Counted from the stretch's first letter, positions 2,509-63,558 are shown. The stretch: DNA of 64,000 nucleotides from a virus (IMGVR_UViG_3300045988_172839:174526-238525), one strand, 5' to 3'. The notes: generated from the letters alone by a model not told the origin. Translations and numbers: made by a program.

Positions 2509-2650
2509 AAAAAACTACTATTTTATGATTTACTTTTAAAGCACAAAATAAATCATTCTACTTTTCTGTACTTTATCCTCTCTGTAAAATTTTCAGTCTG
2601 AAATCTAGCTATATGACTAGAAATTTTCTTTGCTGAATTTCTTAAGGTCT

Positions 2651-2679
2651 ATTATACATTATTTTAAAATAAAAATCAA
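2651..2679 (-). promoter_or_regulatory. sigma-A-type promoter (TTGATT-N17-TATAAT)
   Basis: minus-strand TATAAT at 2651-2656 and TTGATT at 2674-2679, 17-bp spacer. Confidence 0.45.
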
Positions 2680-2861
2680 GTAACAAGATGTACAAAATCT
2701 AAATCAAAATGAGATAAGTTTGGTATTTTTTGGACTAAAGTAAATAATTTGGATTGAAATAGAGTTTACTATAAAGAAAAACAAGTTTGAGGATACCGAA
2801 TAGAGGATTTGGGGAGTTCTTTCAATAGTAAAAAAAAACTGAAATTTAAAATTGACAGTTT

Positions 2862-2903
2862 GTTCTCTGTTCTCTGTTCTCTGTTCTCTGTTCTCTGTTC
2901 TCT
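2862..2903. repeat. tandem heptamer repeat (GTTCTCT)x6
   Basis: six perfect head-to-tail copies read directly. Confidence 0.95.
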
Positions 2904-3336
2904 ACTTTCCAAATTCGACCCAACTCAAAAATCTCAGAACTGAAAACTGAATTAGAAATGCACGTGGACTGAGGATACCGCAAGGGTGACTAGAGTTTGC
3001 TCTGATTTTCTTGGAATTAGAATGCTCCATGAACCTCTACTAATCTTACTGAAGTTTAAGTTACTTACTTAAATTAAGGCTTACAAAGAAGGAAGACCGC
3101 AAAACAAATCTGAAGCCCAACGGAGGTTGAGCGTTCCTATTAACAAAGTTAAAGCCAAAAGTAAAGACCAAAACTCAAAGCGAGGATACCACTGAGAGGT
3201 AGGTTGAGGAGTTGAAGTTTTAAGTTCAGACCTCAGACATTAAACCTGCACAACCAAGCAAAAAGCCACCAAATCCTTACGGAATTGGGGCGTTCCCTAA
3301 CCTTAAAACGAAAAATCAGCCTTAAACTTGAAAAAC

Positions 3337-3715
3337 CTATGACACAATTTAAGGAAACCTAAGACAATATATTCTCAATCTAGGACAGAAATTGAGAGAA
3401 TTAGGACAAATAAATCTCATTTTATGACAAACTTTAACCGTTTTAGGACAAACAAACCTTAATTTAGGACAAAAAGGCAAAGATTTATGACAAATTTAAA
3501 CAAAGTTATGACAAATAAACCTATTTCTACGACAAATAAAACCGTTTTTATGACAAAAAGACAAAGACTTAGGACAATTTTAAGTAAAGTTAAGACAAAA
3601 ATAACTAATCTTAAGACAGATTTTAGTACAATTAGGACAAGTGTATGACAGAATTACCTAATCTTAGGACAAAAAGTCTAAAATCTATGACAAAAATAAA
3701 AAGAGTTACGACAAG
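3337..3715. repeat. phased iteron array, about 19 copies of TTA(G/T/A/C)GACAA at roughly 21-bp spacing
   Basis: repeated ttaggacaa / ttatgacaa / ttaagacaa / ttacgacaa cores read directly; the spacers are A-rich and not conserved. Confidence 0.9.
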
Positions 3716-3940
3716 TCACAACTACTGCTTTTCAGAAGCCTAAATACAAGAAATAAGGGAGAAAAAGACACAAACTTCGCAAAAGTCTTGAAAATCTAGA
3801 TACCGCTGAGAGGGTTTAAGAACTAAATTTAGTTCTCAAAATCAAACCGCAGACATTTTTCCCTAAAATCAAGTTTAAAGGCTCTCATTTGCCCCGTGTC
3901 GCATTTTAAATTGAAGTTGGACATATTATACCATAAGAGG

Positions 3941-3969
3941 TTAAAATCAAATCTGGTGCAATCTGGGGC
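3941..3969 (-). promoter_or_regulatory. conserved intergenic element, copy 1 (CCAGATTG direct-repeat box)
   Basis: ttaaaatcaaatctggtgcaatctggggc matches 36880-36910 and 50697-50728; followed on the minus strand by TGGTATAAT (3927-3935). Confidence 0.4.
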
Positions 3970-4140
3970 TTTTTAGAGAAATAGAAAAAGTGAAGACTAA
4001 AATCTTCACTTATCTTCTACGTTTATTAAGGTTATGTTTAGGTTCATCTTCAAAACAGTCTGTGAAATCAACCTCTTTCGAACGATATAGGAAACCCAAA
4101 CTAACCAACATAAGGACTGCAAGTAATAACCACAAAGTCT

Positions 4141-4419
4141 TTACTCCCAACCATCATCTGAGTTTGCTGCACTCTCATAGTCTACTTCAGCTCCGTCTCG
4201 GAAGCTCTTCTTAGTGAGGAGAGAGTAAACCCACAAACCAAAGTACCAAATAGTCACAACACCAACTACAAGTCCGAGTGGAATCGTAGCTACAATCACA
4301 TCAAGATTGGAAAGACCTGTGAGACGGAGAACGAAAAGTACAACAACTGCAAGCATTGTAAGAATCATTGTCGTCATTAAAATCGCTAATGGTAAGTTCC
4401 ATTTGTTGATAAATTTCAT
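4141..4419 (-). CDS. small membrane protein
   Basis: 92 aa with long hydrophobic stretches (LAILMTTMILTMLAVVVLFVL, LGLVVGVVTIWYFGLWVY). Confidence 0.55.
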   Translation of the reverse strand: MKFINKWNLPLAILMTTMILTMLAVVVLFVLRLTGLSNLDVIVATIPLGLVVGVVTIWYFGLWVYSLLTKKSFRDGAEVDYESAANSDDGWE

Positions 4420-6716: not shown

Positions 6717-7535
6717 TTATTTACCAAACATAAACTGTTCTTGGTCTTTAGCAAATTGCTCTGTATAACGGTCTAAGCGCATGTACATTGCAGCCTTTGA
6801 AATCCCTTGTTTTTCCGCCCACTGGACGACTGGGATACCTTTGAAATAAATCGCCTTAATGTCATCTCTTACCTGTTTAGTTGTCTTATCTTTCAAGTAA
6901 GCCTTTAGCTTAGTTGGTGAGACTCTAAACAAGTCTTCTTCAAACTCTTTAAAGGCACTTGCTACAACATTGTAAGGGTACAATTTTGATAAGATCTCTG
7001 GTGTTGCTTCTTGGTAGGCTACAACTCCACTTACTCTGTTCTTACGAGATTTTACTTTTACTTCGTTTTGAGCTTCCAACCATTTCTTAAAAGGAACTTC
7101 AAGACCCCTACTTAACCCAATTAAGTAAACAGTTTGCTCTTTGAATGGGAAACAAGTAAAGTGCAAGACTTCAATTCCTTCTGCGTTTGCAAAAGCGTGT
7201 ACTAAAGACGACAGCTTAGACAAGCGACTTAACCCTACAACTTCAGACAACTCGTGTAGTGAAATAATTTCACTATTGTCAATCTTAGAGCCATCTTTCA
7301 AGTATTTATCGCTCTCGATAATTTCTTGATTCGTAAGGGGCGCTTTATCTACATAAGTCACACCTCGAACGCGAGACTTGACTTCCCCTATTTGAAACGG
7401 TTTACTTGCAAGACCAATTCTACCATTTTGCAAGTTGTAATTGAATGATGACTCTTGGATTTGGTACTTATTTCTGTACTCATTACGAGTCAACCCTACT
7501 TCTACTACCATAATTCTATCTAAAATACCTTTCAT
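6717..7535 (-). CDS. hypothetical protein, C-terminal HTH-like segment
   Basis: track ORF runs to 7580 but that extension overlaps a consensus promoter (7552-7580), so ATG at 7535 is preferred; QWAEKQGISKAAMYMRLDRY looks HTH-like. Confidence 0.5.
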   Translation of the reverse strand: MKGILDRIMVVEVGLTRNEYRNKYQIQESSFNYNLQNGRIGLASKPFQIGEVKSRVRGVTYVDKAPLTNQEIIESDKYLKDGSKIDNSEIISLHELSEVVGLSRLSKLSSLVHAFANAEGIEVLHFTCFPFKEQTVYLIGLSRGLEVPFKKWLEAQNEVKVKSRKNRVSGVVAYQEATPEILSKLYPYNVVASAFKEFEEDLFRVSPTKLKAYLKDKTTKQVRDDIKAIYFKGIPVVQWAEKQGISKAAMYMRLDRYTEQFAKDQEQFMFGK

Positions 7536-7551
7536 CTCGATTTTCTCTTTT

Positions 7552-7580
7552 ATTATATCACAAATTTTAGTAAAAGTCAA
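7552..7580 (-). promoter_or_regulatory. sigma-A-type promoter (TTGACT-N17-TATAAT)
   Basis: TATAAT at 7552-7557 and TTGACT at 7575-7580 on the minus strand. Confidence 0.6.
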
Positions 7581-8041: not shown

Positions 8042-8893
8042 TCATGAAGGTTTTGAGGATACCACCGATGACGTGATTGGTTTAACTTTATTATCTTGGT
8101 GAACCCAAGCTAAGCGTGGTAGTTCACCCTCTTTAATGACTAAATCCACCGAGTGTGCAGTCGCTAGGCGATAAGTCTTCACTAGGTAATCATTGAGGCT
8201 GAAGACCCCACAACGAGAACCATAATCTCTTAAAGAGTTACCTTCAGAATCAGAAGGAACATAGTAACCTTCCGCATCTTTGTTTAGTGGACAATTTTCA
8301 ACGTAAGTAAGGCCTGTTTTAGGCTCTAAGGTCGTTTCATAAGAAATATCATAAATACGCGGACCTGAAAGATTAAAGGAAATTACAAGACCGTGACTCA
8401 AATCAAACCGTTTGTACACCTCAAAGTTATTATCGTATAGAACTTCTCCAGTTTCAACATCTTCAATTTCAAAACCACGCTCTGTCAATAATACAACACC
8501 ACACAAGTCACCGTTTGCATTTGGTGAGAAAATACGAGGGCACCATTTGTAACTAGGTGTCTCCTCTTCTTGGTACTCTGTTTCATCTGAGTAACCTACT
8601 ACTTCTTCAGTCGTAAGAGTTTGTGGAGCTTGACCTTTAGGCAGAAGCGCATGATCTTCTGAAGATACCGCAACAAGGTTTGAAGGACTATCTGAACGAG
8701 CTAAGTAATGATGCAAGACCAAATCTTGTTCTTCTTTAAACAAAGGAACTAAAAACTCTCCAAAAGCTTGATTGTCTAAGCCTAAAAACTCTTTGGCGAG
8801 TTTTAGGCGTTCCAAATCACCCTCTACCAAAATATCTTTAATTGTCTTGCGAAATTCATTTAAAAATTCTTCTCTAAATTCCATTGAAATCAA
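8042..8893 (-). CDS. hypothetical protein
   Basis: 283-aa ORF in array. Confidence 0.5.
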   Translation of the reverse strand: MISMEFREEFLNEFRKTIKDILVEGDLERLKLAKEFLGLDNQAFGEFLVPLFKEEQDLVLHHYLARSDSPSNLVAVSSEDHALLPKGQAPQTLTTEEVVGYSDETEYQEEETPSYKWCPRIFSPNANGDLCGVVLLTERGFEIEDVETGEVLYDNNFEVYKRFDLSHGLVISFNLSGPRIYDISYETTLEPKTGLTYVENCPLNKDAEGYYVPSDSEGNSLRDYGSRCGVFSLNDYLVKTYRLATAHSVDLVIKEGELPRLAWVHQDNKVKPITSSVVSSKPS

Positions 8894-9354
8894 CCTCTCT
8901 TATTCTTTCTATTTTTCTTCCTAACTTTGTGTATGCGAGGTGCAAACTGCTCCGCAGTTGTGCAAATGTCGTCCCAATTTACTCTAGGTTGTGGGTTAAT
9001 TAGTAGTTTTCTTGTGTCTATAAAGCTCTTTGTGACCTTACTGCAGTTTCTATATCTTTCCTTGTAACAATAGCAGCAGACAAAGAAAGTCAGACCCTTT
9101 TGATTTAAAGCAAACAACTGCTTAACCTTACGGTGGCAAATGTCACAAGGCGTAGTCAAAGGCGCTTTTGAGGATACCGTAACTGTAGGTGTGAGCGAAT
9201 TATCAAAGGTTGTCTCAATATCGAAAGCTACTGCTTTTGGAGAAACTGTAACTGTAGGCTCAGAACCGTTGTAAAAAATTGATTCAGGATCGAAATCCCA
9301 ATTCTTCTTGTCTGGGTTTAAGAACGATTCAAAATTGATAAAATCACCTAACAT
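8890..9354 (-). CDS. Cys-rich (zinc-ribbon-like) protein
   Basis: CDICHRKV...FFVCCYCYKERYRNC; the track extension to 9537 translates the 19-bp tandem repeat and overlaps the upstream gene, so ATG at 9354 with an upstream AGGAA is preferred. Confidence 0.5.
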   Translation of the reverse strand: MLGDFINFESFLNPDKKNWDFDPESIFYNGSEPTVTVSPKAVAFDIETTFDNSLTPTVTVSSKAPLTTPCDICHRKVKQLFALNQKGLTFFVCCYCYKERYRNCSKVTKSFIDTRKLLINPQPRVNWDDICTTAEQFAPRIHKVRKKNRKNKRG

Positions 9355-9392
9355 AAATTTATTCCTATTTTCCTTTCTAAAATATAAGAAAC

Positions 9393-9476
9393 CCCAAAGA
9401 AATTTGGGATACCCAAAGAAATTTGGGATACCCAAAGAAATTTGGGATACCCAAAGAAATTTGGGATACCCAAAGG
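9393..9476. repeat. 19-bp tandem repeat x4.4, each unit holding the near-palindrome TTTGGGTATCCCAAA
   Basis: cccaaagaaatttgggata repeated head-to-tail, in the intergenic space between 9482..10219 and 8890..9354. Confidence 0.95.
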
Positions 9477-9481
9477 TAGTT

Positions 9482-10219
9482 TTATACTGGGATTCTTGCA
9501 CTATGTAAAAAGCTTTCAATCTTTTCCATAGCTTCATTTATTTTTGTCATTACTCCTGAATTAGAGTAAAAATTACAAGGGACAGTAATCTTCGCAGTAA
9601 TAAGCTCATTAACAGAATTTGAAAAATCCAATACTAAACCTTCAGAGCCTAGATTAAACTTCATAGCACGTGAACCTGCAACTTCCTTAGAAACTTCAAC
9701 ACGACCAAGACTAACACTAGAAAAATTTGTCACAACAACTTGAAATTGATTAAAATTGAATGTAATCAATGAATTTGTAAAGTCGTATTTTAAATCAAAT
9801 TTATAAAAGTTACCACCTGTTAATTCAAGTAGAACTGACAAAGCGTTTATTAACCCTGAAACGTCATTAAACCAATATTGAATAGGATTCATAGCAGTTG
9901 CAGTTCCCAATATTTTCTCCATTTTAGCTCGCACTTCAGTTTCAGAATAAACTGCAATAGTGTACGAAATATCAGAGTAATGCTGAACCAACTGCAATGT
10001 ACCTAAAATATGGTTTACTACAACTTCCATCTGCAGTTTAGAACGTAAAGTGGAGTTCAAGCTATCAAGTTTTTCCTGTAATTTCTTACTTAATTTTAAA
10101 AACGGAAGCTCAACTTGGGAAGCTTGTTTTCTTTGTTCTATCTCTTTCATTAGTTGTAATTTAGACATTTCACTCTGTAAATCTAGTAAGCGAGTGTCTA
10201 TAGCGTCAATTAAATCCAT
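9482..10219 (-). CDS. hypothetical protein
   Basis: 245-aa ORF in array. Confidence 0.5.
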   Translation of the reverse strand: MDLIDAIDTRLLDLQSEMSKLQLMKEIEQRKQASQVELPFLKLSKKLQEKLDSLNSTLRSKLQMEVVVNHILGTLQLVQHYSDISYTIAVYSETEVRAKMEKILGTATAMNPIQYWFNDVSGLINALSVLLELTGGNFYKFDLKYDFTNSLITFNFNQFQVVVTNFSSVSLGRVEVSKEVAGSRAMKFNLGSEGLVLDFSNSVNELITAKITVPCNFYSNSGVMTKINEAMEKIESFLHSARIPV

Positions 10220-18595: not shown

Positions 18596-19153
18596 TTACT
18601 CCTTACAATCCAAAGCCTTTTGAAACTCTTCACTTGTGTGTTGAGTTCCACCCTTGTTAATCAAAACATAAAAGTCAATTAAGTCATTCCAAGCTTCAAT
18701 GTAAGAGTGGACAATGCTGATTGGATACCGCTTGATATTTAGCCATTCTTGGAAAGACAAATCAGTTACATAATATTCTTTACCCTCAAAGGTAATCGGA
18801 AATTGACCTGTTAAAAACTCTAAAATTGCAGTAAACCGTTGTTGACCATCAAATAAAACGTGATCCATTTTAGCACGTTTTTCATCCTCGTCAAACCACC
18901 AATCGTTTAGGTAAAACGCACCAATAGGCAAACCATTAAGCATAGATACAATCAAATTCTCCTTCTGCTCTTGTGTCCAAACCAGTCCACGTTGAAACTC
19001 TGGGAACCAAGAACCGTTAGGATGTTCCTCACAGTATGTTGTGTAAGTATTGTACAAACTTTCAAAGCTAGAGGAATATGTGTCACACCGAACTGTCTTA
19101 ATATCAACACCTTGATTTTCTTTATTTGGTCGAAATTTAGATAGATTAGACAT
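18596..19153 (-). CDS. DUF262 (ParB/Srx-like, GmrSD N-terminal type) domain protein
   Basis: FQRGLVWTQEQKENLIVSMLNGLPIG ... FDGQQRFTAILEF matches the DUF262 QR/DGQQR signature. Confidence 0.6.
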   Translation of the reverse strand: MSNLSKFRPNKENQGVDIKTVRCDTYSSSFESLYNTYTTYCEEHPNGSWFPEFQRGLVWTQEQKENLIVSMLNGLPIGAFYLNDWWFDEDEKRAKMDHVLFDGQQRFTAILEFLTGQFPITFEGKEYYVTDLSFQEWLNIKRYPISIVHSYIEAWNDLIDFYVLINKGGTQHTSEEFQKALDCKE

Positions 19154-31177: not shown

Positions 31178-32497
31178 TTAATTTTGATAGATATAAGTTA
31201 CAAAACCTTCAGAGGTTGTTGTTGGGTTAAACCAACCACGGTGGTTGCCAATGTAACGTTTTCCACCAACATTTGATTCAGAAACCTGAATGCGTGTAGC
31301 TGATTCTACCGCAGTTACCACCGCAACGTGACCATAAGCACCGTCATTCCAACATGCAATCGCACCTACTTGTGGAGTTGAACCTGTTCTAAACCCCGCT
31401 GCAGCAGCACTTGTCGCCCACTGCGCTCCATTACCCCAATAATCTCCAGCCCAAGGTGCCAATGTTTTAGCTCCCCAAGTACACTCTCCCATTGGATAAC
31501 TTGAAGCGTCTGTATTGTATCTAGGACGACTTGTTGTGGTCACCGTAGGAGTTACTGTTGGTGTTGGGGTTGGAGTTGTTGCTTCCTCTTGAGGTTCTGA
31601 ACTTGGAGCTACTTCTTCTGAGGTAGTTGGGGCAGACGGAGTGGATACCGAAGAAACTTCTTGCGCTAATGAAGTATTTGCAGAGTTAGTTACTACTGCT
31701 TTTTCACTCTCTTTTTGAGCTAGGTAAGCCTTCTCTTCTTCCAAAGCTTTAGCTGCTTGACGTTCTGCTTCAGCTTTTTGCTCTACCAACTCAGCTTTCT
31801 TATCTTCTGCTTCAGTTTTTTCAACCTCTAAGTTCAACTTCGCTACTTCTAACTCAGCCTTGCGAGAATTAAGAGCTTGCGCGTCATCTTCTAACTTCTC
31901 TTTATTGGTAATAACCGTGTTAATCGCTTGGTTGTTCTCTTCTTGTTTCGCTAAAATGTCTTCTTTGTCACTCTTTTGTTGTGCTAACATCTTGTTACTT
32001 GCTTCAACAATTTGGTTCATAGAAGTAACCTTAGAAATAGCTTCAGAAATAGAATTTGAGTTAACAACTGCATTCACATAGTCTAAAACAGAACCACTAG
32101 TTTGCGCACTACGAGCTTGTTTTTCCAAAGACTCTTGACGAGACACAATGTTCTTAGATAAGTTGTTGATGTCTTTTTCTAAGTCTTTAGACACTGACTC
32201 CAAACGGTTAGTTTCAGCTTGTAAATTAGCTTGTTCAGTTTCTAAAGCAGTAACTTTACTTTGGACACTCTCTAACTGGGAACTTGCTTCTTTTTGTTTC
32301 TCTGTTAATTGCTCCACTTTCTGGTCTTGTTCTGCAATGGCAGAATTAGATACCCCAACTGGATTTGAGGTTGTTTGTGGCACATCAACTACCTCATGAG
32401 GACTTAACGCTCCTGCGCTGACTGTTTGAATGGTTGTTAAACCTTGACTTAATAATACTGTACTTAATAATAAAGTCGATAAAACTCTCTGTTTCAT
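31178..32497 (-). CDS. secreted PcsB-like coiled-coil / CHAP-domain peptidoglycan hydrolase
   Basis: signal-peptide-like [28 protein letters not shown], long coiled coil, Thr/Pro linker, C-terminal CHAP pattern (CTWGA ... GHVAVV ... ESN); ATG at 32497 preferred over the TTG at 32521. Confidence 0.75.
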
Positions 32498-32532
32498 ACT
32501 GGGAAAATCCTTTACTTTCAAAATATGAAATC

Positions 32533-41488: not shown

Positions 41489-41827
41489 TTAACGAATGCG
41501 TTCCAAACGCAAATGTACGACTACATTATCTTTGTAATCTGTGCGGTCAATGTCACGTTGCAAACGGTAAGAAATGTAATGCTCCGCAATTTGGAGATAT
41601 CCATTTGAGAGGAGTTTGTTTTCTACCAAAGCTTGAACCATAGAAATGGTAATATTCCCAGAGTGAGACTCTTCTAACTCTACTTCAACACTCTTAGCAA
41701 TTTTAGCTAAATTCTGTCTCAAATCATCACTCACTACAAATACAGACTGCGCTGCTTTAATCAAAGCACCGTAAATCTTATTAGCGTCAAAACCCTCTAA
41801 TTGACCGTTACGTTTTACAATTTTCAT
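41489..41827 (-). CDS. stand-alone ATP-cone domain protein
   Basis: MKIVKRNGQLEGFDANKIYGALIKAAQ matches the ATP-cone N-terminus of NrdR/NrdA/NrdD. Confidence 0.6.
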   Translation of the reverse strand: MKIVKRNGQLEGFDANKIYGALIKAAQSVFVVSDDLRQNLAKIAKSVEVELEESHSGNITISMVQALVENKLLSNGYLQIAEHYISYRLQRDIDRTDYKDNVVVHLRLERIR

Positions 41828-42083: not shown

Positions 42084-42339
42084 CTGTTACCTCATCTTTA
42101 AACAAAACCTCTCGCTTAAATCGACCATCTAAAAATTCATCTAATGGACGGAGCCAGTGTAGACGATTAGCATCTCCAAGGCGCTTATAGGATACCGCAA
42201 GAGTTAAATCAGACTCCACTATTACAATGTCTTTAACAGTGTAAAGGTTGTCTGTCTTTAAATGTCGCCAAAGAGAACCTATGGGAACTTCTTTACGTTT
42301 AAGAGATAAATCTTCTTGCACTTCTTCTAGTGATTTCAT
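42061..42339 (-). CDS. DUF1653-like small protein
   Basis: WRHLKTDNLYTV ... HWLRPLDEFLDGRFKRE pattern. Confidence 0.45.
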   Translation of the reverse strand: MKSLEEVQEDLSLKRKEVPIGSLWRHLKTDNLYTVKDIVIVESDLTLAVSYKRLGDANRLHWLRPLDEFLDGRFKREVLFKDEVTDGSNYRR

Positions 42340-43106
42340 AAACTCAACCTCTCCACTACCGCTGCCTTGTTTTCTACCAAAGGAACTAATACCTCATGTA
42401 TCTGAGAACCAAATAAACTTAAAAAGTTGTCTATATCTTTTACTTGAAATGAAAGTCCTTCGCCAAATTGATACCGCTTCTCTTCCACATATAAGAAAGT
42501 TGAATTAGTAGGTACTTGCCACTTCTTCTTTAGCAACGCTTTTTGCCCTGCTTCATCATTATCCGGAACACAAATTACCTTGTCGAACAAGTTAAGAACT
42601 GCTCCCTTATAAGCATTTACGTCCGCTCCCATAGTCGCAATAGCTGGTACACCATAAGCGTCCAAATGAAGAGCATCGAAAATACCTTCAACCACCACTA
42701 CAGAACCTCGATACCGCTTGTCACCGTTAAAGGACTTATCTAAGGCTCGATCTAAATTGAACCAATGACTTTCTTTAGAGAAGTCTTTGTCAGCAATAGT
42801 GTAGTATTTTGGAAACCCTTTTCGCCAACCTACTAAAGTTGCAATCGAACCATCTGCGTTACGAATAGGTACAACCACTCGACCTTCTAAAGTAAAAGTT
42901 CCTTTATCTAACCAACCTACCTCATCTAAGGCATTCATCAACTCAATATTAACTGAAGGACTTGTTGCGAAACCTAAATAATTCTCAATCAAATAAGACT
43001 TAATCTCATCATGAATGTACTTTCGCTGAGTGGCGACTTCGGATACCGAGTCTAAATCGATAAGGTGTGACTTAACCAATTCAAAAACTTCTTCTTTGGT
43101 TCTCAA
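42336..43106 (-). CDS. TOPRIM-domain primase-like protein
   Basis: VVVVEGIFDALHL and VICVPDNDEAGQKA (TOPRIM E and DxD motifs); no zinc-binding domain seen. Confidence 0.6.
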   Translation of the reverse strand: MRTKEEVFELVKSHLIDLDSVSEVATQRKYIHDEIKSYLIENYLGFATSPSVNIELMNALDEVGWLDKGTFTLEGRVVVPIRNADGSIATLVGWRKGFPKYYTIADKDFSKESHWFNLDRALDKSFNGDKRYRGSVVVVEGIFDALHLDAYGVPAIATMGADVNAYKGAVLNLFDKVICVPDNDEAGQKALLKKKWQVPTNSTFLYVEEKRYQFGEGLSFQVKDIDNFLSLFGSQIHEVLVPLVENKAAVVERLSL

Positions 43107-51571: not shown

Positions 51572-53020
51572 TTAATTAAAATATTCTTTACCTACAGATT
51601 TTAGGTCTGTAGTTAGTTGCGACATTGTAAGCTCTTGATTGCGCAAAAACGTATCAAAGTCAGACTTACAACCATCAATGTCTACTGTTACTCCATCTAA
51701 ACCTACATGCTGTAACAGAAAGGCTGAATATAAGTCACGTTGAACTAAGTCATCACCAATCAGTTTTGAACGTGTACCTAATGAAACTTTGTTGTACTCT
51801 TCAGTTAAGTGGTTTAACTGGGAAGCCTTTACTTCTCTTGTATTTGCAAGAATAAATGTTTTACCTTGGTACATGGTTTTATAACGAATCTGTTCAATCA
51901 ACATAGACGGTGCTTTGTGTAAAAGAGTTTTACCAAAGCGTTTCTTAGACTGGTATTTACCTGTCTTTTCACTTACTTTCGTTTCCTTTGTACGAGCTTG
52001 TAAACCTTTAAAGGACATTTGCTCTACTACGAAAGTTGAACCCATACGCACAACTCTGTTAGCTAAAGTTTTATGAGCCAACTTACGTTGCTCCGCTGCT
52101 TTACGATGTAACTCACTAAGTTCTGCTTTTGTCTTCAGATACTCATTAGAATCTACCCAAGTTTGGCGCACACCCTTTTTAATAGTACCATCTGCATTGT
52201 ACTTGTGAGGATTGTTAGCCCTACGTTGACGATCAAGTTTGCGACTTAAACGTATAAGTTCTTGTTGATCTAAGTCAACTCCCCTTGCTAGTTCCTCTAA
52301 CTCAGTCTGATAATAAGAGGATACCGCAATCGTAGATGTACCAATATCAATTCCCACAGAACCTTCAAGTTCGGAAGTGTATTTAGTTGGGAGTGTTCCC
52401 TCAAAAATAGACTGTACATAGTAGTTCCACTCCCCAAACTCAAATCTGCGAACTAAACGGTTGTACTTCAAAGTATTACGTAAAACTTCTTCTTCAAAAA
52501 CATCGTTTTCGTTACGAATGGTACATGAAACTTTCTTTTTGCGAGTTGAGATAGTGAAAACATTACCTTTTATACTAACTCCTGTAGTTCCGCTACTCTC
52601 AAAGGAAGTCAAATTACCTCTAAGATTCACTTTCTCAGCACCTTTAGCAAACATCACTTTACTAAATGCACCCCATGCTCTAAAACCTAACATATAAGCA
52701 ACCTTAGAAGGAATATAATCACTGTAATTACGAGCATTACGGTAGTCATTTGCAAACTTACCTGCTGTGAACTTACCTACTAAGTCATACTTAGTACCAA
52801 GATCTTTCAAAATTGCATTACGCTCTTTTCCTTTAGGGAACTTATAGGCTTTCTTATAAAGGGGATCTTTCTTCATCTTAGAGTAACGTTTTAACAACGC
52901 AATTAAAGTCTTCTTGTAAATATCGTCTGCCATACGGAAACGCTTTGCAAACTGCTCTTTGTGAGACTTGTTTGCATTTAATTTACGAGTATAGACAAAT
53001 AGTTGTTTACCTTTCTCCAT
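51572..53020 (-). CDS. tnpB: TnpB-like RuvC-fold protein (IS200/IS605 OrfB family) lacking the zinc-ribbon cysteines
   Basis: GIDIGTSTIAVS (RuvC-I D), FVVEQMSFKGLQ (RuvC-II E), LVQRDLYSAFLL (RuvC-III D); the usual TSQxCxxCG position reads ASQLNHLTEEYN; strong AAAGGAGG RBS. Confidence 0.75.
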   Translation of the reverse strand: MEKGKQLFVYTRKLNANKSHKEQFAKRFRMADDIYKKTLIALLKRYSKMKKDPLYKKAYKFPKGKERNAILKDLGTKYDLVGKFTAGKFANDYRNARNYSDYIPSKVAYMLGFRAWGAFSKVMFAKGAEKVNLRGNLTSFESSGTTGVSIKGNVFTISTRKKKVSCTIRNENDVFEEEVLRNTLKYNRLVRRFEFGEWNYYVQSIFEGTLPTKYTSELEGSVGIDIGTSTIAVSSYYQTELEELARGVDLDQQELIRLSRKLDRQRRANNPHKYNADGTIKKGVRQTWVDSNEYLKTKAELSELHRKAAEQRKLAHKTLANRVVRMGSTFVVEQMSFKGLQARTKETKVSEKTGKYQSKKRFGKTLLHKAPSMLIEQIRYKTMYQGKTFILANTREVKASQLNHLTEEYNKVSLGTRSKLIGDDLVQRDLYSAFLLQHVGLDGVTVDIDGCKSDFDTFLRNQELTMSQLTTDLKSVGKEYFN

Positions 53021-55747: not shown

Positions 55748-55942
55748 GGTTTAAATGAGGATACCCTCTCAATATCTTATTCGGTTTTCCCCAACGAGGT
55801 CTCCACTGAAAACCCTAGACAAAGCTTGTCAATAAACCCGTGGGTAGTCTAAAAACTTTATAACGCTTAAGTATACTCTAAGTAACACTTTTATATTAAC
55901 TCATGTTATACATGTGTGGTTTTATAGTCTTTTCCTTGACAA

Positions 55943-56013
55943 CTAAGGTAGCTGGATTCGAACCAACGATGAAGGAGTCAAAGTCCTTTGCCTTACCTCT
56001 TGGCTATACCTTA
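55943..56013 (-). tRNA. tRNA-Gln (anticodon TTG)
   Basis: hand-folded cloverleaf: acceptor TAAGGTA/TACCTTA, D GCC/GGC, anticodon arm AAGGA-CTTTGAC-TCCTT, T-arm GTTGG-TTCGAAT-CCAGC; no encoded CCA. Confidence 0.85.
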
Positions 56014-56208
56014 ACAATAAAAGATGTAGCTGATTGGTACAGCGCTCTTCCCAATCACTTGCGCCAAACACGTTCGTATCCAGACTACATCGTAACAACA
56101 TATCTTCCTAACAACGAGGATGGTATGTTGTCACCAAGTATACTTGGGGAAGCAAGAACCCAATACCACTGTTTCTCACCAGTGAACTAGTTTCTCTCCA
56201 TAATCCCA

Positions 56209-56281
56209 TGCAGATTAACGGACTCGAACCTCTGACCCTCTGATTACAAATCAGATGTTCTACCAACTGAACTAAATCTGC
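56209..56281 (-). tRNA. tRNA-Thr (anticodon TGT)
   Basis: acceptor GCAGATT/AATCTGC, D GTTC/GAAC, anticodon arm TCTGA-TTTGTAA-TCAGA, T-loop TTCGAGT; one mismatch in the T-stem. Confidence 0.8.
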
Positions 56282-57168
56282 TCACTAAGTTTGTGGTCAA
56301 GCACTTAGAAAACTTGTCAAAGGACTCCAACCCTTCGAAGAAAGCACCCACGGTTAACCAATCTCATTAGGTTCCGAGTATCTTGGAATTATGTGCTTTT
56401 TATTTTAGGATTCCCACCTATAGACCTTCTACCAAAGCCTATCCCCGTCGAGTATTGAGCATACCCAGTCAACTTTGTTACTGCTTGGTTTTCACTAGTA
56501 GTTGACCTAGAGTTTCTTTTTTGGGTTCTAAAGAAACTTAAACCTCAAGTTTGTGTAGCTGAGAGGTTCGTGCGCACGTCCTCTCACTTACCCCAATCAC
56601 TAAGCGCGACTGAACTACATCATTTAAAAGAGAAAATAACTTTTCTCAAATGCTCGATACCGAAGTGTTAGAGCAAACACCTCAGCAATTTATTTTCTTG
56701 GATTTTTACTTAAGGGGTCAAGGGGTGGAAAAGACAAACCGTTGCCAAAACTGCGCCTTGCGTCCACCTAGTTTTAATGTACACTCAACTAGGATTTACC
56801 GCCTGAGTTTATCGACTTCATCGGATTATTGGTCACGTATAAAAGGTATTTACTTATAGCTTCAATTTTGTAAATGTGTTCTCCCCTAAAAGTTATTTTG
56901 ACAAAGCAGGGAACAAGCAGTTAGAAGTTCTTAACACGTTTTCCATAAATGACTATGTTAGACAGGGAGCCATGTTATATCAGATTTACAAACAAAATAC
57001 AAGTAAATTCGGGTTTAAACCCTCACCCGCGGTGTACACCGAAAACCCTAATCAGAAGCTCGTCTAAGATACCGTGAGGTAGCACCTTAAAATCAACGCT
57101 CGTTTAACGTCCAAAAGACGAAACAGTTTAGGTGTCTTATTTAGGACAATAATTACTAAGTAACAAAT
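56282..57168 (-). ncRNA. about 0.9-kb gene-free, comparatively GC-rich structured segment between the methyltransferase gene and tRNA-Thr (large ncRNA candidate)
   Basis: only plus-strand shadow ORFs; stems such as CCTAGTT/AACTAGG, GGTGGA/TCCACC and CGC-AAG-GCG; starts with the 30-nt box shared with the tnpB 3' flank. Confidence 0.4.
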
Positions 57169-57972
57169 TTAGTTCTTCTGAAAAACACAAACCATTTTCG
57201 TATCAAAAGGAACTAAGTCTAGCTCAAAGTAATTCTGTAAATAAGCTAAATAACTCTGATCCTTATATCTATGAATACCTTGCAACTGCAAACAATCTTT
57301 CCAAGGATACGCAATCCACTTTATGAAGGCATTTGTAACATTATATTGCTCTTTTGACTCTCGACTCAAAGACTTCAAACCCCAAACTGTATGAAAAATA
57401 ATCTCATAAGCATTTTTAACAGTAGTTACAATAGAACCGTCTTCTTTTGTCTCAACAGTATCAATAATCGAGTTTTTCTGAAGTTCTTTAATCCAAGTAT
57501 GTATTTCTATCTCACTTTGTTTTGAAACAGGTCGGAGCGTAAATGTCTCAGATACCAAATCTGGGTTAGCCCAATCTCGAATAACTAGAGAACCACCTGT
57601 TTTTAAACTATTTACAATCATGGATATGGTTTCTGTACGTTCTTGACGAGTTAAATAACTCATAATTTCGTGGAAAACACTAGAGAGATAAATTATATCA
57701 AATTGAAGTTCCCCTTTAAGTAACTCTTGTTTAGTTACCACATTTACACCCATACGAGATAAAGTAGTTTGCACAGTCGGAGAAATATCATAAGAATAGT
57801 AATTAGTACCTGTAGAAACTACATTAGCTATAAACTCATAAGAAATACCAGAACCAAAATCCAAAAGTGTAACCCCCTCTCCAAGAAATGGCTCAACTAC
57901 CTTAAATTTAGACTCAGCAGTTTGGTTCATTCTTTGAATATAGCTATTATTATCACTTAAATAGTTATCCAT
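57169..57972 (-). CDS. class I SAM-dependent methyltransferase
   Basis: VTLLDFGSGISYEF (motif I), FDIIYLSSVFHEI, LKTGGSLVIRDW. Confidence 0.65.
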   Translation of the reverse strand: MDNYLSDNNSYIQRMNQTAESKFKVVEPFLGEGVTLLDFGSGISYEFIANVVSTGTNYYSYDISPTVQTTLSRMGVNVVTKQELLKGELQFDIIYLSSVFHEIMSYLTRQERTETISMIVNSLKTGGSLVIRDWANPDLVSETFTLRPVSKQSEIEIHTWIKELQKNSIIDTVETKEDGSIVTTVKNAYEIIFHTVWGLKSLSRESKEQYNVTNAFIKWIAYPWKDCLQLQGIHRYKDQSYLAYLQNYFELDLVPFDTKMVCVFQKN

Positions 57973-58216
57973 TAAATACTCTCTCAGTTTTTCTACATGT
58001 TTAGAAAAATATCAATTATTAGACTTCCATTTTTGAAGAAATCTGATAACTTGTTCTACTTCTGACTTAGATAAATCGTAAGTACCACAGTCATACGAGC
58101 CTTTAGTTTGACAAGTAATAGATACCCCATCATTATATCCTTGTATGGTTTAATCTCCATCAGCATTCTCAAAATCTAATTGACTCATAATTACACATTT
58201 CCTTTTCTCATAGTTA

Positions 58217-58287
58217 TGTACCTTGTAGGAATCGAATCTACGATCCTCAGCTTATGAGACTGAAGATCTACCAACTGCTACCATTCC
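58217..58287 (-). pseudogene. tRNA-like element with CAT anticodon loop but no matching acceptor strands
   Basis: good anticodon arm TCAGT-CTCATAA-GCTGA and T-loop TTCGATT, but 5' GGAATGG cannot pair with 3' AAGGTAC and the D-stem is defective. Confidence 0.35.
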
Positions 58288-58303
58288 ACTTTAATTTAAC
58301 AAA

Positions 58304-58374
58304 CACAGGCAGTAGGAATTGAACCCACACTGACGATTTTGGAGACCGTAGTTCTACCTTTAAACTATGCCTGT
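58304..58374 (-). tRNA. tRNA-Trp (anticodon CCA)
   Basis: acceptor ACAGGCA/TGCCTGT, anticodon arm ACGGT-CTCCAAA-ATCGT, T-arm GTGGG-TTCAATT-CCTAC. Confidence 0.9.
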
Positions 58375-58378
58375 ATAA

Positions 58379-58459
58379 TGGAAAGAGAGGGATTCGAACC
58401 CCCGAACCCGAAGGAGCGGATTTACAGTCCGCCGCGTTTAGCCTCTTCGCTATCTTTCC
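58379..58459 (-). tRNA. tRNA-Tyr (anticodon GTA), long variable arm
   Basis: acceptor GGAAAGA/TCTTTCC, anticodon arm GCGGA-CTGTAAA-TCCGC, T-arm GGGGG-TTCGAAT-CCCTC. Confidence 0.9.
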
Positions 58460-58470
58460 GAATATTAAAA

Positions 58471-58833
58471 CTAAGTTTGACCATACAATAGACTATTACT
58501 AAACTCAAGCACAACCTTGAAAACTGTATCTATGTTTAGAGTGAAAAGTAAGATAAGTAGTCCAAATAAGATCTTTGAGACTAGTGAAGGTAGAATATCT
58601 TCAATCGAAAGACCTAATAATTCTAGTTTAATCTCAATTAGATATTTGAAAATTATCATCCCACCAAATGCAATGGCAACCGCACCATCAGTATTAGGTT
58701 GAGGAAAACCAAAGTAAATATGTAATTTATACAAAATCACCCAAGCTAGTAAACCTAAAGCAGAAGAAAGGATACCACCTGCAAGGTAAAGTAACGCTTC
58801 GTTTCGTAAATCTTTAAACCAACTACCTTCCAT
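58471..58833 (-). CDS. small membrane protein
   Basis: 120 aa with 3 hydrophobic helices; its RBS (AAGAGG) lies inside the anticodon-loop remnant of the upstream tRNA 5' half. Confidence 0.5.
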   Translation of the reverse strand: MEGSWFKDLRNEALLYLAGGILSSALGLLAWVILYKLHIYFGFPQPNTDGAVAIAFGGMIIFKYLIEIKLELLGLSIEDILPSLVSKILFGLLILLFTLNIDTVFKVVLEFSNSLLYGQT

Positions 58834-58880
58834 ATTCCAACCTCTTCAAACCAATGCTCTACCAACTGAGCTACCTTTCC
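58834..58880 (-). pseudogene. tRNA 5' half (Phe-GAA-like) with no 3' half
   Basis: GGAAAGG-TA-GCTC-AGTTGGTA-GAGC-A-TTGGT-TTGAAGA, then runs straight into the ATG of 58471..58833. Confidence 0.5.
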
Positions 58881-58930
58881 TAAAATGTGGAGACTCCTTA
58901 GAGGAGAGTTCGCACATATAAACCAACAAA

Positions 58931-59003
58931 CGGTCTCGAAGGGAATTGAACCCTCGATCTCTGCCGTGACAAGGCAGCGCGATAACCACTACGCTACGAG
59001 ACC
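58931..59003 (-). tRNA. tRNA-Asp (anticodon GTC)
   Basis: acceptor GGTCTCG/CGAGACC, anticodon arm CTGCC-TTGTCAC-GGCAG, T-loop TTCAATT. Confidence 0.9.
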
Positions 59004-59007
59004 TAAT

Positions 59008-59089
59008 GTGATAGGAAGGTCTTGAACTGACTTCCCTAGAAGTAACGGCACCTCTCCTTACTGCATCAACCTACAAATGCTTCTATCAC
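59008..59089 (-). other. atypical 82-nt tRNA-like cloverleaf with extended, bulged arms
   Basis: terminal stem GTGATAG/CTATCAC, D-like GCAT/ATGC, two roughly 7-bp bulged arms with 7-nt loops AGAGGTG and AGTTCAA. Confidence 0.3.
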
Positions 59090-59100
59090 TTAACAAAAAA

Positions 59101-59385
59101 TTAAAAGCCACCAAGAACTAAACATTCTTCCAAAGGTCTAAGAACGAGGTTTTGAAATTTAAGAAAATCCGGATACCCTAAACTATCTCTATAATGTAGC
59201 AACTGTCTTGAGAAGTAAAACTCTGTACCGTTGTAGTAAACATTACCAAGATATTCTCCAGTATGTCGATTACGCACCATAACTGCTTTAGTACCTACTA
59301 CAAAATATAGGTCTTTAACTCTAGTTCTATGTTGGATAATCAAGCGTCTAAGACTTACTGGTAATAGTTTTCTGACTCGTTTCAT
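59101..59385 (-). CDS. hypothetical protein
   Basis: 94-aa basic ORF; AAAGGAGAAG RBS. Confidence 0.5.
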   Translation of the reverse strand: MKRVRKLLPVSLRRLIIQHRTRVKDLYFVVGTKAVMVRNRHTGEYLGNVYYNGTEFYFSRQLLHYRDSLGYPDFLKFQNLVLRPLEECLVLGGF

Positions 59386-59900
59386 TCTACTTCTCCTTTC
59401 TTTTTGATAAATAATATGACTTCGGAGGGAGTCCCACCCACGACACCTGCGCTTGGTGTATTGTAAACATCAAAGCCACGTGTGTTTTTAATTCTGATAA
59501 CTAACTAGACCTTTGTCCAAGGCTTGCAACACACAAAACACCGTAAATCCACTAATGCATCTATACCCCTACACAAGAGGTAAGACCATTAGCGCAACTT
59601 CCAACTCGTGCACAAGTTGGAGGGCTGGCTGTCGCCCTTGTCGTTGCCGACAATACACCATACAGGATTCGAACCCGTGTTACTGCCGTGAAAAGGCAGT
59701 GTCTTAACCCCTTGACCAATGGTGCTTAAGGAGGGCAGGTCTCTGTTTTCCAACAGACGGATTTGGATGCACTGATCGACTGTGTACTTTTATTTGGGCA
59801 GCCCACGTTTCCCTTGTAGACAAATATGTGCAGATGTTTGGTAGTCGTTACCAAACGCTCAGTCAAATCTATCTACTGCAAAAATTAACTTCACGAATTT
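59386..59900 (-). ncRNA. promoter-driven roughly 0.5-kb non-coding unit with tRNA-Glu embedded between structured flanks
   Basis: promoter at 59901-59929; flanks contain GNRA-capped helices (TCTGTT-GGAA-AACAGA, GTCG-GCAA-CGAC) and CCAACT/AGTTGG. Confidence 0.4.
59654..59725 (-). tRNA. tRNA-Glu (anticodon TTC)
   Basis: acceptor GCACCAT/ATGGTGT (one G.U), anticodon arm CTGCC-TTTTCAC-GGCAG, T-arm ACGGG-TTCGAAT-CCTGT. Confidence 0.85.
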
Positions 59901-59929
59901 ATTATAACACAAAGAGTCAAGTTTGTCAA
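59901..59929 (-). promoter_or_regulatory. sigma-A-type promoter (TTGACA-N17-TATAAT, TGn)
   Basis: hexamers at 59924-59929 and 59901-59906. Confidence 0.65.
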
Positions 59930-59985
59930 TAAGTTTTAATTAAAAGTTCACTATTTACTAAATTAGTTAGAAACTTACCGAAAGC

Positions 59986-60348
59986 TTAGAGTGCTGTGTG
60001 ATACTCTTTTAATAGCCTAAGTTCCCTTTCATATTCACGTTGAAGTTTTAAACGCTCCGATTTAGTTTCTTCGGTCATAGGGATTTCAAAAAGCATAGAA
60101 GCATAATTGTGAGTAAACAACTCATAGGTATCATTGAAGTCTACAACAACAAACCAAAGAAACTTAACCTCAGTAAGAGTTGTTTTAGTGTTTAAAGTTA
60201 GTTGAATCCCACAGTTTAGAATCTCATTTAAAGGGTTTGAAGCAAGTTGCTCAAAAGTGAATCCCATATGTTCATTTTCATTGCTCTGAATAGTCTTATA
60301 ATCCCCAAACAAAGGACTGAGAGAAGAAGTATCTAACAAAGAAATCAC
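59986..60348 (-). CDS. hypothetical protein
   Basis: 120-aa ORF; start uncertain. Confidence 0.45.
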   Translation of the reverse strand: MISLLDTSSLSPLFGDYKTIQSNENEHMGFTFEQLASNPLNEILNCGIQLTLNTKTTLTEVKFLWFVVVDFNDTYELFTHNYASMLFEIPMTEETKSERLKLQREYERELRLLKEYHTAL

Positions 60349-60577
60349 ATCCTACTTAGACAAATACCCATATTTCTCAAAAATCTTTAATAACCTAGTG
60401 TAGCTCTTAGGGAGTGAAAAGTAGCGAACTGTATCACTATATAAAAAAGTAGAACCCTCACTCAACCTAAGTAACTTCATAACAAAACTCCTTAAAAATC
60501 TTTATTTAATATAGTATACCATATAAGTCTAAGAATTACAAACATAAAAAAAAGTAAGTAAATCAACTAAGGCTTAC

Positions 60578-60823
60578 TTACAATACTTCACTTGAAGGTT
60601 CATATTCTTTTAAAAGTTCATCTAAATCATAGTTTGGAATATCTAACTGATCAGACTTATTTCTTAAAATAATCTTCCCATCTTCAAAAATAAACTCTAC
60701 CTCATTACCTTCAGACAAATTTAAGTTTTCTAAAACTGTAGTTGGTAGAAGGATACCCTTACTGTTTCCCCATTTAGTAACCTTTTTAGTTCCTAAACTG
60801 CATCGATAATGTTCTTTAACCAT
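60578..60823 (-). CDS. AbrB/MazE/SpoVT-family DNA-binding (antitoxin-like) protein
   Basis: VTKWGNSKGILLPTTVLENLNLSEGNEVEF is the swapped-hairpin barrel signature. Confidence 0.65.
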   Translation of the reverse strand: MVKEHYRCSLGTKKVTKWGNSKGILLPTTVLENLNLSEGNEVEFIFEDGKIILRNKSDQLDIPNYDLDELLKEYEPSSEVL

Positions 60824-60837
60824 CTAAGAATCACCCC

Positions 60838-61188
60838 CTAATCATCAATTAAATCTAAGTATAAAGAGCTGAGAAGATTTTCCAAACTATCAACTGCTGC
60901 TTTATTGCAATCAACACGTAAATACTCATCATCTGGGAAAATATCTAACCAATCTAAACTTGTAGGGTAAAAACCTGTCTCTTCATAAATCTGTGCAGAA
61001 ACTTCATCTAAAGTTTCCGCTAGTTTGTCTACATCAGTAGGTTTAAAATCACCTAAACCACAAATTGCACCGTCATCTTCCCAATAATAAGGATTGATAC
61101 AAATATGGACACTACAAGGATATTCATTTAAAGCTTCTTTTGCTAAAGTTTTAGTTATAAAAGACATTTCAATTTCCTTATCTTTCAT
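60838..61188 (-). CDS. acidic hypothetical protein
   Basis: 116 aa, strongly Asp/Glu-rich. Confidence 0.5.
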   Translation of the reverse strand: MKDKEIEMSFITKTLAKEALNEYPCSVHICINPYYWEDDGAICGLGDFKPTDVDKLAETLDEVSAQIYEETGFYPTSLDWLDIFPDDEYLRVDCNKAAVDSLENLLSSLYLDLIDD

Positions 61189-61195
61189 TAGTTTA

Positions 61196-61562
61196 TGGAG
61201 CCGGTGGGAGTCGAACCCACGTCCAAACGACCTTTCCAGCTAACCTTACTGCGCACTGCTACGTTTTAACATTCTACTTTTAGGAAACGCACAAAGCTAA
61301 AAGTTATATCTCTCTTTAACAAACTAAGTTGAGAAATCTTAGTTGCGAGTACCGATGTTTATAGCAACTAAAAGATACCGGTACTTATCTTAGTCGCTCG
61401 TCTATTCGACTTTTTACTTGTGTTGAGTGACAACTAAGCCGAAGCTTAGGCAACCATTTCAACTGGTGCATTGTTATTTGCAGTTATGTTTAGGTTGGTG
61501 ATTACGTCACCACTCGGTACGAGGTTAAAAGGTACAATCGCCTGTCGAATCCAAGCGACCCC
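61196..61562 (-). ncRNA. ssrA: tmRNA (ssrA)
   Basis: 5' GGGGTCGCTTGGATTCGACAGG and 3' GTGGGTTCGACTCCCACCGGCTCCA form a tRNA-Ala-like acceptor with a G3.U pair and a T-arm; internal ORF ..GCA AAT AAC AAT GCA CCA GTT GAA ATG GTT GCC TAA followed by a UUCG-capped helix; about 367 nt. Confidence 0.85.
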
Positions 61563-61578
61563 TCATTAAGATAAATCT

Positions 61579-61607
61579 ATTATATCAGAAAGATGGTTAA
61601 ATGTCAA
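61579..61607 (-). promoter_or_regulatory. sigma-A-type promoter (TTGACA-N17-TATAAT, TGn) for the tmRNA
   Basis: hexamers at 61602-61607 and 61579-61584, about 17 nt upstream of the mature 5' end. Confidence 0.7.
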
Positions 61608-63542: not shown

Positions 63543-63558
63543 ATAATATAAAAGGTAA

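Follow-up and report, generated by a model that had tools for sequence, protein, structure and literature searches.

Phased arrays of short direct repeats are already known from iteron-type origins of replication and from centromeres. Iteron repeats lie about two helical turns apart: R6K carries seven iterons of 22 bp, and those of P1, F and RK2 measure 17–19 bp on a pitch of about 22 bp. About 20 sites are typical of centromeres, as in F sopC (12 repeats of 43 bp) or R1 parC (10 iterons of 11 bp, flanking the promoter), and would be a large number for an origin; the parC site of pSK41 has four 20-bp repeats. Jumbo phages organise their intracellular DNA with spindles of the tubulin-like PhuZ, and to our knowledge phage actin-like systems are known experimentally only from the prophage CGP3. 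In this prophage of Corynebacterium glutamicum, the alpS repeats are bound by the AlpA protein, which connects the DNA with AlpC, an actin-like protein (PMC4446434). Here we analyse a 64,000-nucleotide stretch of viral DNA (IMGVR_UViG_3300045988_172839:174526-238525), referred to below as the window, in which 19 copies of a short motif lie in one orientation between positions 3338 and 3715. Our favoured reading, to which we give a probability of about 0.4, is that this long array is a parC/alpS-like centromere and operator of an actin-based system for the positioning or segregation of the DNA of a jumbo phage or phage-plasmid. New compared with the described systems are the setting, an abundant family of uncultured jumbo phages, the split into two arrays, the single core per two helical turns and the lack of a canonical ParR. 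The evidence for the element is strong; that for its mechanism is circumstantial.

The long array consists of 19 sites phased at two helical turns

Between 3338 and 3715, the + strand has 19 copies of the motif TA-N-GACA and the - strand has none; in the remaining 63.6 kb of the window, 10 copies were counted on the + strand and 12 on the other. In order, the start-to-start distances are 22 bp, thirteen times 21 bp, 11 bp and three times 21 bp, so that 16 of the 18 intervals measure exactly 21 bp. Tandem Repeats Finder reports periods of 21, 42, 63 and 84 for the array. An extended form of the site, TANGACAA, is present in 15 of the 19 copies, and the paired pattern TANGACAA-N13-TANGACAA matches 11 times in the window, every time within the array, against an expected count of 0.00 in 100 dinucleotide-preserving shuffles. 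These counts bear out the first-pass annotation, which had reported about 19 sites in one orientation at roughly 21 bp.

The 21-bp unit reads (A/T)(A/T)TT-TA-N-GACA-AA with variable A-rich spacers, and a position matrix built from 169 units gives A-A-T-T-TA-N-GACA-A-A, followed by a variable A/T-rich stretch. The free base is T, G or A and rarely C in the window; over 219 exact sites it is T in 100, G in 78, A in 38 and C in 3. On the + strand the motif has the form TTANGACAA. Read along the direction of the genes, i.e., on the - strand, which carries all 76 gene-like open reading frames (ORFs, at least 90 amino acids (aa)) of the window, it is TTGTCNTAA. The 11-bp interval separates a close pair of sites at 3633–3651 (+ strand), TAGGACAAG-TG-TATGACAG. 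A register shift of one helical turn near the same end of the array is kept in related genomes, where the spacings are 11, 12 plus 9, or 32 bp.

The array is conserved as a DNA-level element

The source of the window is a jumbo phage, or a replicon resembling one, with a Firmicute as host, and the host bacteria are human-associated and probably oral. A pattern scan of the IMG/VR DNA retrieved a family of 226–284 kb contigs from human metagenomes that share the array, and the neighbouring proteins are encoded on contigs of up to about 297 kb in the protein database. Most of the 96 IMG/VR pattern matches outside this family are coding repeats of 7 aa. Absence of the array from otherwise syntenic relatives had been singled out as the observation that would count against the element; instead, orthologous arrays of 12–23 exact sites each occupy the same syntenic position in every relative found.

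The DNA around the array is 66–89% identical between the window and its relatives. When the array is aligned with those of six relatives, identity is 96.8% over the six fixed positions of the core, 44% at the free third position and 64.6% in the spacers, the last value being lower than that of the neighbouring non-coding DNA; as this alignment is anchored by the cores, the contrast between core and spacer is somewhat inflated. The values agree with the earlier description of the spacers as A-rich and not conserved. Units of the array have been gained or lost among relatives as 21-bp blocks. In 12 non-redundant arrays, the 207 spacings measure 21 bp (169), 20 or 22 bp (11), 42 bp (10), 9, 11 or 12 bp (15) and 32 bp (2), all of them approximating n × 10.5 bp, and nine of the ten 42-bp gaps contain a one-mismatch site at +21. 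The AA dinucleotide recurs with a 10.5-bp periodicity in every array (z = 3–11); such phased A-tracts suggest that the DNA of the array is probably intrinsically curved.

These data indicate that the array is a selected DNA-level element, neither a coding repeat nor a product of chance. The proposal that all sites face the same side of the helix is upheld by the comparison between relatives, in which selection acts on both the core and the helical phase. Synteny, conservation of the core, spacing in multiples of 10.5 bp and non-coding nature together give the element the look of a one-face protein-binding array, and we consider it very likely that it loads a sequence-specific protein onto one face of curved DNA.

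As 21 bp correspond to seven codons, the array could alternatively act as a protein or an RNA, i.e., as a heptad-repeat micro-protein or a repeat-bearing transcript. Open frames of 100–152 codons do span the array in some relatives, on either strand, and a terminator-like hairpin follows it on the gene strand. However, these frames are not kept: the longest has 64 codons in the window and 24–56 codons in three divergent relatives (L040, L085 and L011), and the 152-codon ORF of another, L006, reads the same core in two different frames. Within the core, ACA is never swapped for a synonymous codon, and a T at a third codon position is invariant. The 11- and 32-bp spacings fit the helical repeat but break any reading frame, as expected if the constraint acts on double-stranded DNA and not on an RNA, and Rfam gave no match between positions 1500 and 5000 of the window. 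With its frames unconserved, the core read in two frames in L006 and the constraint acting at the nucleotide level, the coding reading was rejected, and we regard a function as protein or RNA as so improbable as to be nearly negligible.

A second array abuts the promoter of an operon encoding a ParM-like ATPase

In all ten near-complete or multi-locus relatives, these sites form a second, identically oriented cluster 15–18 kb further in gene direction, at a place that corresponds to beyond the left end of the window. This short array, of 9–10 in-register units (17–18 in L088), begins at the hairpin that terminates the preceding gene. Its last two sites are spaced by 11 bp, and it stops 4 nt short of the -35 element of a TTGCAA-17-TATAAT promoter. 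This promoter heads a conserved operon encoding a DHH protein (518 aa), a ParM-like protein (406 aa) and p462, then p289 and p611. Only these two clusters were found in each of the ten genomes that have both arrays, and the short array is the sole phased array within 10 kb on either side of the ParM-like gene.

The 406-aa protein matches Pfam family PF21522 (E = 7e-10, above the gathering score) and, weakly, ALP_N. Its translation carries the phosphate-1, phosphate-2 and adenosine motifs of the actin fold (DLGNSETR, DFGEGTTD and VGGG, respectively). In a profile comparison with the PDB, the best matches were Clostridium botulinum ParM structures (7x3h and 7x54, E ~1e-9), followed by MamK, MreB and other ParMs. 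Judged by these matches, the ATPase of the operon is ParM-like, with a predicted actin fold. A search of the INPHARED phages with this protein found nothing.

On the favoured reading, an adaptor protein would coat the 19 sites of the long array and couple the phage DNA to filaments of the ParM-like ATPase, which is encoded 15–18 kb away in the related genomes and outside the window; the same adaptor, bound to the short array at the -35 element, would autoregulate the ParM-like operon. In favour of this centromere-and-operator reading are the second array, which abuts the promoter of the ParM-like operon, the many sites, the limitation to two clusters per genome and the precedent of CGP3. The first-pass annotation had listed an origin, a partition site and a packaging site side by side: partition has gained specific support from the second array at the ParM-like promoter, whereas packaging or a genome end is unsupported. 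We infer from the sequences that a protein may bind the array, that p462 or p247 (the product of the first gene downstream of the long array, described below) may be the binder, and that coupling to filaments may follow.

The prophage system shares several traits with this locus: it is phage-encoded, it relies on an actin-like ATPase, and its approximately 24 short repeats are concentrated upstream of the promoter of the operon and are bound by an adaptor (PMC4446434). An action on the replication and positioning of phage DNA, rather than on classical plasmid inheritance, would be a further point in common. The two systems differ in that alpS has a TTAAnnG core with no strict 21-bp phasing reported and that CGP3 has a single cluster at the operon, whereas two arrays lie 15–18 kb apart here; moreover, no AlpA homologue was identified at the present locus, and its ParM-like protein is closest to clostridial ParMs. 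With the ParMRC systems of R1 and pSK41, the locus shares helically phased tandem direct repeats at the promoter of an operon for an actin-like ParM, and by analogy cooperative coating by an adaptor, repression of the operon and curved or wrapped DNA would be expected. F sopC, with 12 tandem 43-bp repeats of one SopB site each, likewise presents one short core per integral number of helical turns in otherwise free sequence; however, its 43-bp units are near-identical, its core is an inverted repeat and its partner is a ParA-type ATPase, not an actin-like one.

Several observations weigh against an actin-based centromere. The ParM-like gene lies outside the window, and 15–18 kb separate it from the long array. 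Some 660 bp also lie between the long array and the nearest predicted promoter, so that only the short array occupies the classic position of parC: of two features of a ParM locus, the actin-fold ATPase is present in the relatives, and the promoter-proximal direct repeats are those of the short array and not those of the long array of the window. The ParM-like gene is separated from the short array by a DHH gene. An adaptor of the ParR kind was not identified: the ParM-like gene is followed not by a small ribbon-helix-helix ParR gene but by the gene for the 462-aa coiled-coil protein p462, in which no recognisable DNA-binding domain and no DNA-binding Pfam match was found. In known ParR centromeres the sites recur every 10–11 bp, whereas here there is one 7–9 bp core per 21 bp, in 19–23 units, with the main array far from the operon. 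Finally, two sets of more distant relatives differ: L126 (34% identity in the ParM-like protein) has kept the DHH/ParM/p611 module with no array upstream, and in the clade of L127 the array lies upstream of a UvrD-like helicase gene, 5.5 kb from the ParM-like gene, so that the array may be associated with the entire replication and recombination module.

If the arrays are the cis sites of the ParM-like system, they would provide a DNA handle of 380 bp with 19 sites, and two candidate adaptors, for the positioning, replication or inheritance of the genomes of very large phages that infect oral Firmicutes. They would also mark a possible plasmid-prophage lifestyle in an abundant uncultured phage family.

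The promoter-abutting position of the short array also bears on the possibility that both arrays are purely regulatory, i.e., operators at which a repressor or activator such as p247 would time the operons beginning with p247/p410 and with DHH/ParM, without serving to move or replicate the DNA. Each array is preceded by a terminator and followed by a promoter, the short array reaches the -35 element of a strong promoter, and the sites of the L127 clade run up to the ribosome-binding site of the helicase gene. However, some 20 sites spread over 380 bp, at such a distance upstream of the nearest predicted promoter, greatly exceed what an operator needs, and the motif keeps to its two clusters and is not spread through the other promoters of the window. 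LytTR sites (AgrA, ComE, PlnC/D), the targets of regulators common in streptococci, are 9-bp direct repeats with a 12-bp spacer. This geometry, taken as a lead only, matches that of the 21-bp unit, in which a 9-bp core and a 12-bp AT-rich spacer follow each other in direct orientation; known LytTR sites, however, are paired and do not form runs of about 20, and their consensus, of the ACAGTTAAG type, mismatches TTANGACAA/TTGTCNTAA on either strand. No LytTR domain (PF04397) was found in the approximately 68 proteins of the window and its relatives that were scanned against Pfam, a scan that was not exhaustive. A regulatory role fits the short array and not the 380-bp long array, and as an account of both it is quite unlikely.

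Phased repeats accompany the module in more distant relatives

Repeats of related design are found beyond the family. In L101, whose ParM-like protein is 54–56% identical, phased CTTGCATA/CTTGCGTA repeats with spacings of 22, 11, 21 and 10 bp immediately precede the promoter of this operon; the end of the contig falls within the repeats, and their core is related but different. In L103 (26% ParM identity), 30-bp iterons are located upstream of the ParM-like gene. The clade comprising L127, L128, L129, L134 and L135 has a phased array with a clearly different core, TTTCCGAA/TTTCTGA, in 5–7 copies spaced by 21 or 42 bp, placed between a p410-like gene and the UvrD-like helicase gene (L127:4292-4494, L128:3680-3860, L134:2685-2860 and L135:2240-2430). 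Phased repeats thus recur in the module while the core changes, the pattern expected of a co-evolving pair of protein and DNA. It is, however, the entire module, not strictly the ParM-like gene, with which the arrays are associated.

The module itself (p410/UvrD/.../DHH/ParM-like/.../p611) is kept in further contigs of large phages and in Bacillus thuringiensis plasmids of 350 kb, whose homologue is annotated by NCBI as a member of the ParM/StbA family. In L143 (NZ_CP045024.1 233491-252492) and nine other B. thuringiensis plasmids of about 350 kb, DHH/ParM-like/.../p611 stand amid co-oriented hypothetical genes, which suggests that such a plasmid is a jumbo phage-plasmid; no phased array was found in the 19 kb of L143 that were examined. 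A protein of about 628 aa in L102 showed no detectable relation to p611. A search with the L101 variant core TANGCAAG, three times at 21 bp, returned only unrelated and mostly perfect repeats, on contigs without homologues of the family proteins.

We put forward more tentatively, and as rather unlikely, that a widespread family of 230–290 kb phages infecting human-associated Firmicutes possesses a ParM-like machine with a split centromere, made of a long array and an operator array, and with a new adaptor (p247 or p462) in place of ParR. If so, the module (p410, UvrD, DHH, ParM and p611) and its co-evolving phased arrays would extend to other large phages and to the B. thuringiensis 'plasmids', and these jumbo phages would have either a plasmid-prophage lifestyle or an actin-based counterpart of the tubulin (PhuZ) system by which replicating jumbo-phage DNA is positioned.

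Short non-coding arrays with similar cores were seen in unrelated viral contigs (L001:9585-9790, L016:1678-1791, L015:3492-3574, L033:7057-7147 and L055:7589-7679). They include eleven copies of TAGGACAA near a P4-type integrase, five copies of TTGTATGACAA, spaced by 11, 22, 21 and 21 bp, upstream of a terminase operon (L015), and five copies of TACGACAA beside two DnaA boxes (L033 and L055).

The surroundings of the array bear on replication and packaging

Direct repeats at two helical turns are the classic geometry of iterons, and the long array could belong to an iteron-type origin or replication-control locus, at which an initiator, for example p247, would bind the 21-bp iterons, bend the DNA and open a nearby region, the second array being an auxiliary or handcuffing site. 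As at the R6K gamma origin, P1 oriR/incA, F oriS/incC and RK2 oriV, a second cluster exists elsewhere and an adjacent gene encodes a possible DNA-binding protein of about 250 aa, a size like that of plasmid Rep proteins, with a probable helix-turn-helix (HTH). The array heads a DNA-metabolism module (p247, p410, the UvrD-like helicase and DHH, with a 5'-3' exonuclease gene in L101), the phased array of the L127 clade lies directly upstream of the helicase gene, and the unrelated phages L033 and L055 show that arrays at 21 bp can stand beside DnaA boxes. Nevertheless, no DnaA box (TTATCCACA, at most one mismatch) was found in 2509–4140. No AT-rich unwinding element adjoins the array: the flanks at 3200–3330 and 3716–3900 are 52–70% AT, not above the array or the genome average, and the AT-rich stretch of the region is the p247 promoter, 600 bp away. 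The GC skew keeps its sign across the array, and in both the window and L097 the cumulative curve passes through it monotonically, an argument that is weak since all genes are co-oriented. Moreover, no Rep-family match was obtained for p247, known origins have three to five times fewer iterons than the 19–23 seen here, and only 7–9 of the 21 bp are conserved, unlike in Rep iterons. Thus the earlier candidate origin retains its two-turn direct repeats but lacks DnaA boxes, a flanking AT-rich element and a switch of skew, and we consider an origin unlikely. If the array were one, no cis element would have been mapped earlier in this group of phages.

A packaging site (pac, as an array for the small terminase) or a genome terminus or terminal-repeat boundary was the remaining proposal. 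Phased short repeats are known at pac sites (SPP1 pacL/pacR and P1 pac), several fragment contigs of the family end 160–900 bp from the array, and the five-site TTGTATGACAA array of the unrelated phage L015 is upstream of a terminase operon. However, ten near-complete contigs of 226–284 kb cross the array at arbitrary internal positions. The nearby contig ends fall exactly at two heptamer microsatellites, CAGACCT (L014, L034 and L060) and GTTCTCT (L098 and L099), whose copy number varies between strains, and in two samples both contigs abut there. These ends are therefore best read as assembly breaks and were rejected as evidence of physical termini. No terminase gene was recognised near either array. 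The genome-end or packaging proposal is not sustained by these data, and we judge it very improbable.

Candidate binding proteins

The first gene downstream of the long array by transcription encodes p247 (1747–2490, - strand), an all-helical, fast-evolving protein of a very narrow family: only 18 clusters were found among 1.84 billion representative proteins, and p247 is 75% identical to its L072 counterpart, versus 97% for p410. HTH signals at about residues 65–105, all sub-threshold, came from HTH_23 (in three members), Sigma70_r4_2 and a resolvase DNA-binding domain; they make a tri-helical HTH in this segment probable, and p247 an unproven candidate for the array-binding protein. The first-pass annotation had named two nearby candidate HTH proteins. 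For the ORF at 1747–2508 the signals are present but below threshold; for that at 6717–7535 (ORF 6717–7580) no DNA-binding match was obtained.

Neither p247 nor p410 had a significant match among PDB sequences, and no Rep, DnaD or winged-helix initiator match was found for p247. No remote homologue of p247 maps onto the distant loci; in an hhalign comparison, the 214-aa protein of L127 aligned with the p247 profile over the same segment, although not significantly (E = 0.07). The second candidate, p462, occupies the position of ParR and has near-invariant N- and C-terminal domains, while its Pro/Ser-rich linker and coiled coil vary freely; it is a candidate adaptor of a non-canonical kind. AlphaFold models were of low confidence for both p247 and p462 (predicted local distance difference test, pLDDT, 50 and 49, respectively). 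Overall, the Pfam scans of the approximately 68 proteins gave almost no DNA-binding annotation.

Other elements of the intergenic gap

The long array lies in a stretch that is free of genes from 2509 to probably about 4009. The gap, first given as 2509–4140, is real, but its right limit is probably set by a small conserved ORF at 4010–4150 (- strand, 46 codons), which encodes a small hydrophobic protein with near-identical counterparts of 46–47 aa in L006 and L028. Along transcription, i.e., from right to left, the gap contains a hairpin (4011–3988), some 270 bp of further sequence, the long array, a hairpin with a T-run (3296–3262), (CAGACCT)n, boxes of the sequence GAGGATACC, (GTTCTCT)6 and a TTGATT-17-TATAAT promoter, followed by the genes for p247, p410 and p146. 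In the relatives, the region beyond p146 holds p205, a repeat-rich gap of 900 bp, the UvrD-like helicase, insertion-sequence genes and a C5 methylase.

The hairpin at 3988–4011 (- strand) resembles an intrinsic terminator and ends the upstream transcription unit, which places the long array between a terminator and the next promoter. The hairpin element at 3262–3296 (- strand), CCAATTCCGTAAGGATTTGG followed by TGGCTTTTTG, also resembles a terminator. With 82–91% identity among relatives, few stretches of the gap are better conserved, and even the most divergent relatives have kept it. A weaker copy of this GGCGTTCC-ending hairpin is located at 3113–3137, 159 bp from it; the GGCGTTCC-ending hairpin beside the array could serve as a terminator or as a signal of another kind, for a protein or in RNA. 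The sigma-70-like promoter (2679–2651, - strand) and its upstream flank, together 2651–2710, are 99–100% identical in the relatives, and the promoter presumably drives the p247 gene.

The six GTTCTCT units reported earlier were found at 2861–2903 (+ strand), in the least conserved part of the gap. A second heptamer microsatellite, (CAGACCT)n, has two copies at 3226–3240 (+ strand) and more than eight in L028 and L045. The single CAATCTGG element was likewise confirmed, at 3959 (CCAGATTG on the - strand). Of four isolated GGATACC boxes assigned to the gap, three are exact copies of GAGGATACC (2789–2797, 2971–2979 and 3182–3190, + strand), but the fourth, at 3796–3803, is a degenerate AGATACC copy, and the motif is not specific to the gap: the boxes belong to a window-wide, strand-specific GGATACC motif.

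Other features of the window and its relatives

No INPHARED phage matched the gap or 20 kb of the window at the nucleotide level. A lysin with PcsB-coiled-coil and CHAP domains (31178–32521) suggests a Streptococcus-like host. The other proteins recognised in the window are TnpB-like, Toprim (primase-like, 42336–43106), ATP-cone (41489–41827) and a GmrSD_N-like nuclease domain (18596–19153), and very little else. Nine transfer RNA genes and a transfer-messenger RNA gene (tag peptide ANNNAPVEMVA) are located at 55942–63543, all on the - strand. TnpB/OrfB_IS605-like genes are present at 51572–53020, and in L010 an IS607-type pair of a serine resolvase and TnpB (L010:5777-7598) lies between the two arrays; these genes indicate that insertion sequences are active in these phage genomes.

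The 900-bp gap upstream of the UvrD-like helicase gene, which corresponds to beyond the left end of the window, was inspected in L097 (L097:13038-13941). It holds about 5–6 dispersed repeats, 115–150 bp apart, each composed of (A)GAGGGTATC and, about 20 nt later, CTTGCCAC(T/A)AA; these could be tandem phage promoters or another binding array.

In the whole 64 kb, all 52 copies of GGATACC are on the + strand, whereas about two would be expected on each strand. Copies, for example those at 578, 2791, 10682, 11170, 32887 and 62457, are found within genes and also within the terminator-like hairpins of - strand genes, where they occupy the loop or the inner stem. This extreme polarity resembles that of Chi, KOPS or nick sites. 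At 9395–9470, four tandem 19-bp units, AAAGAAATTTGGGATACCC, each contain one GGATACC and lie inside or at the junction of the ORFs 8890–9537 and 9482–10219.

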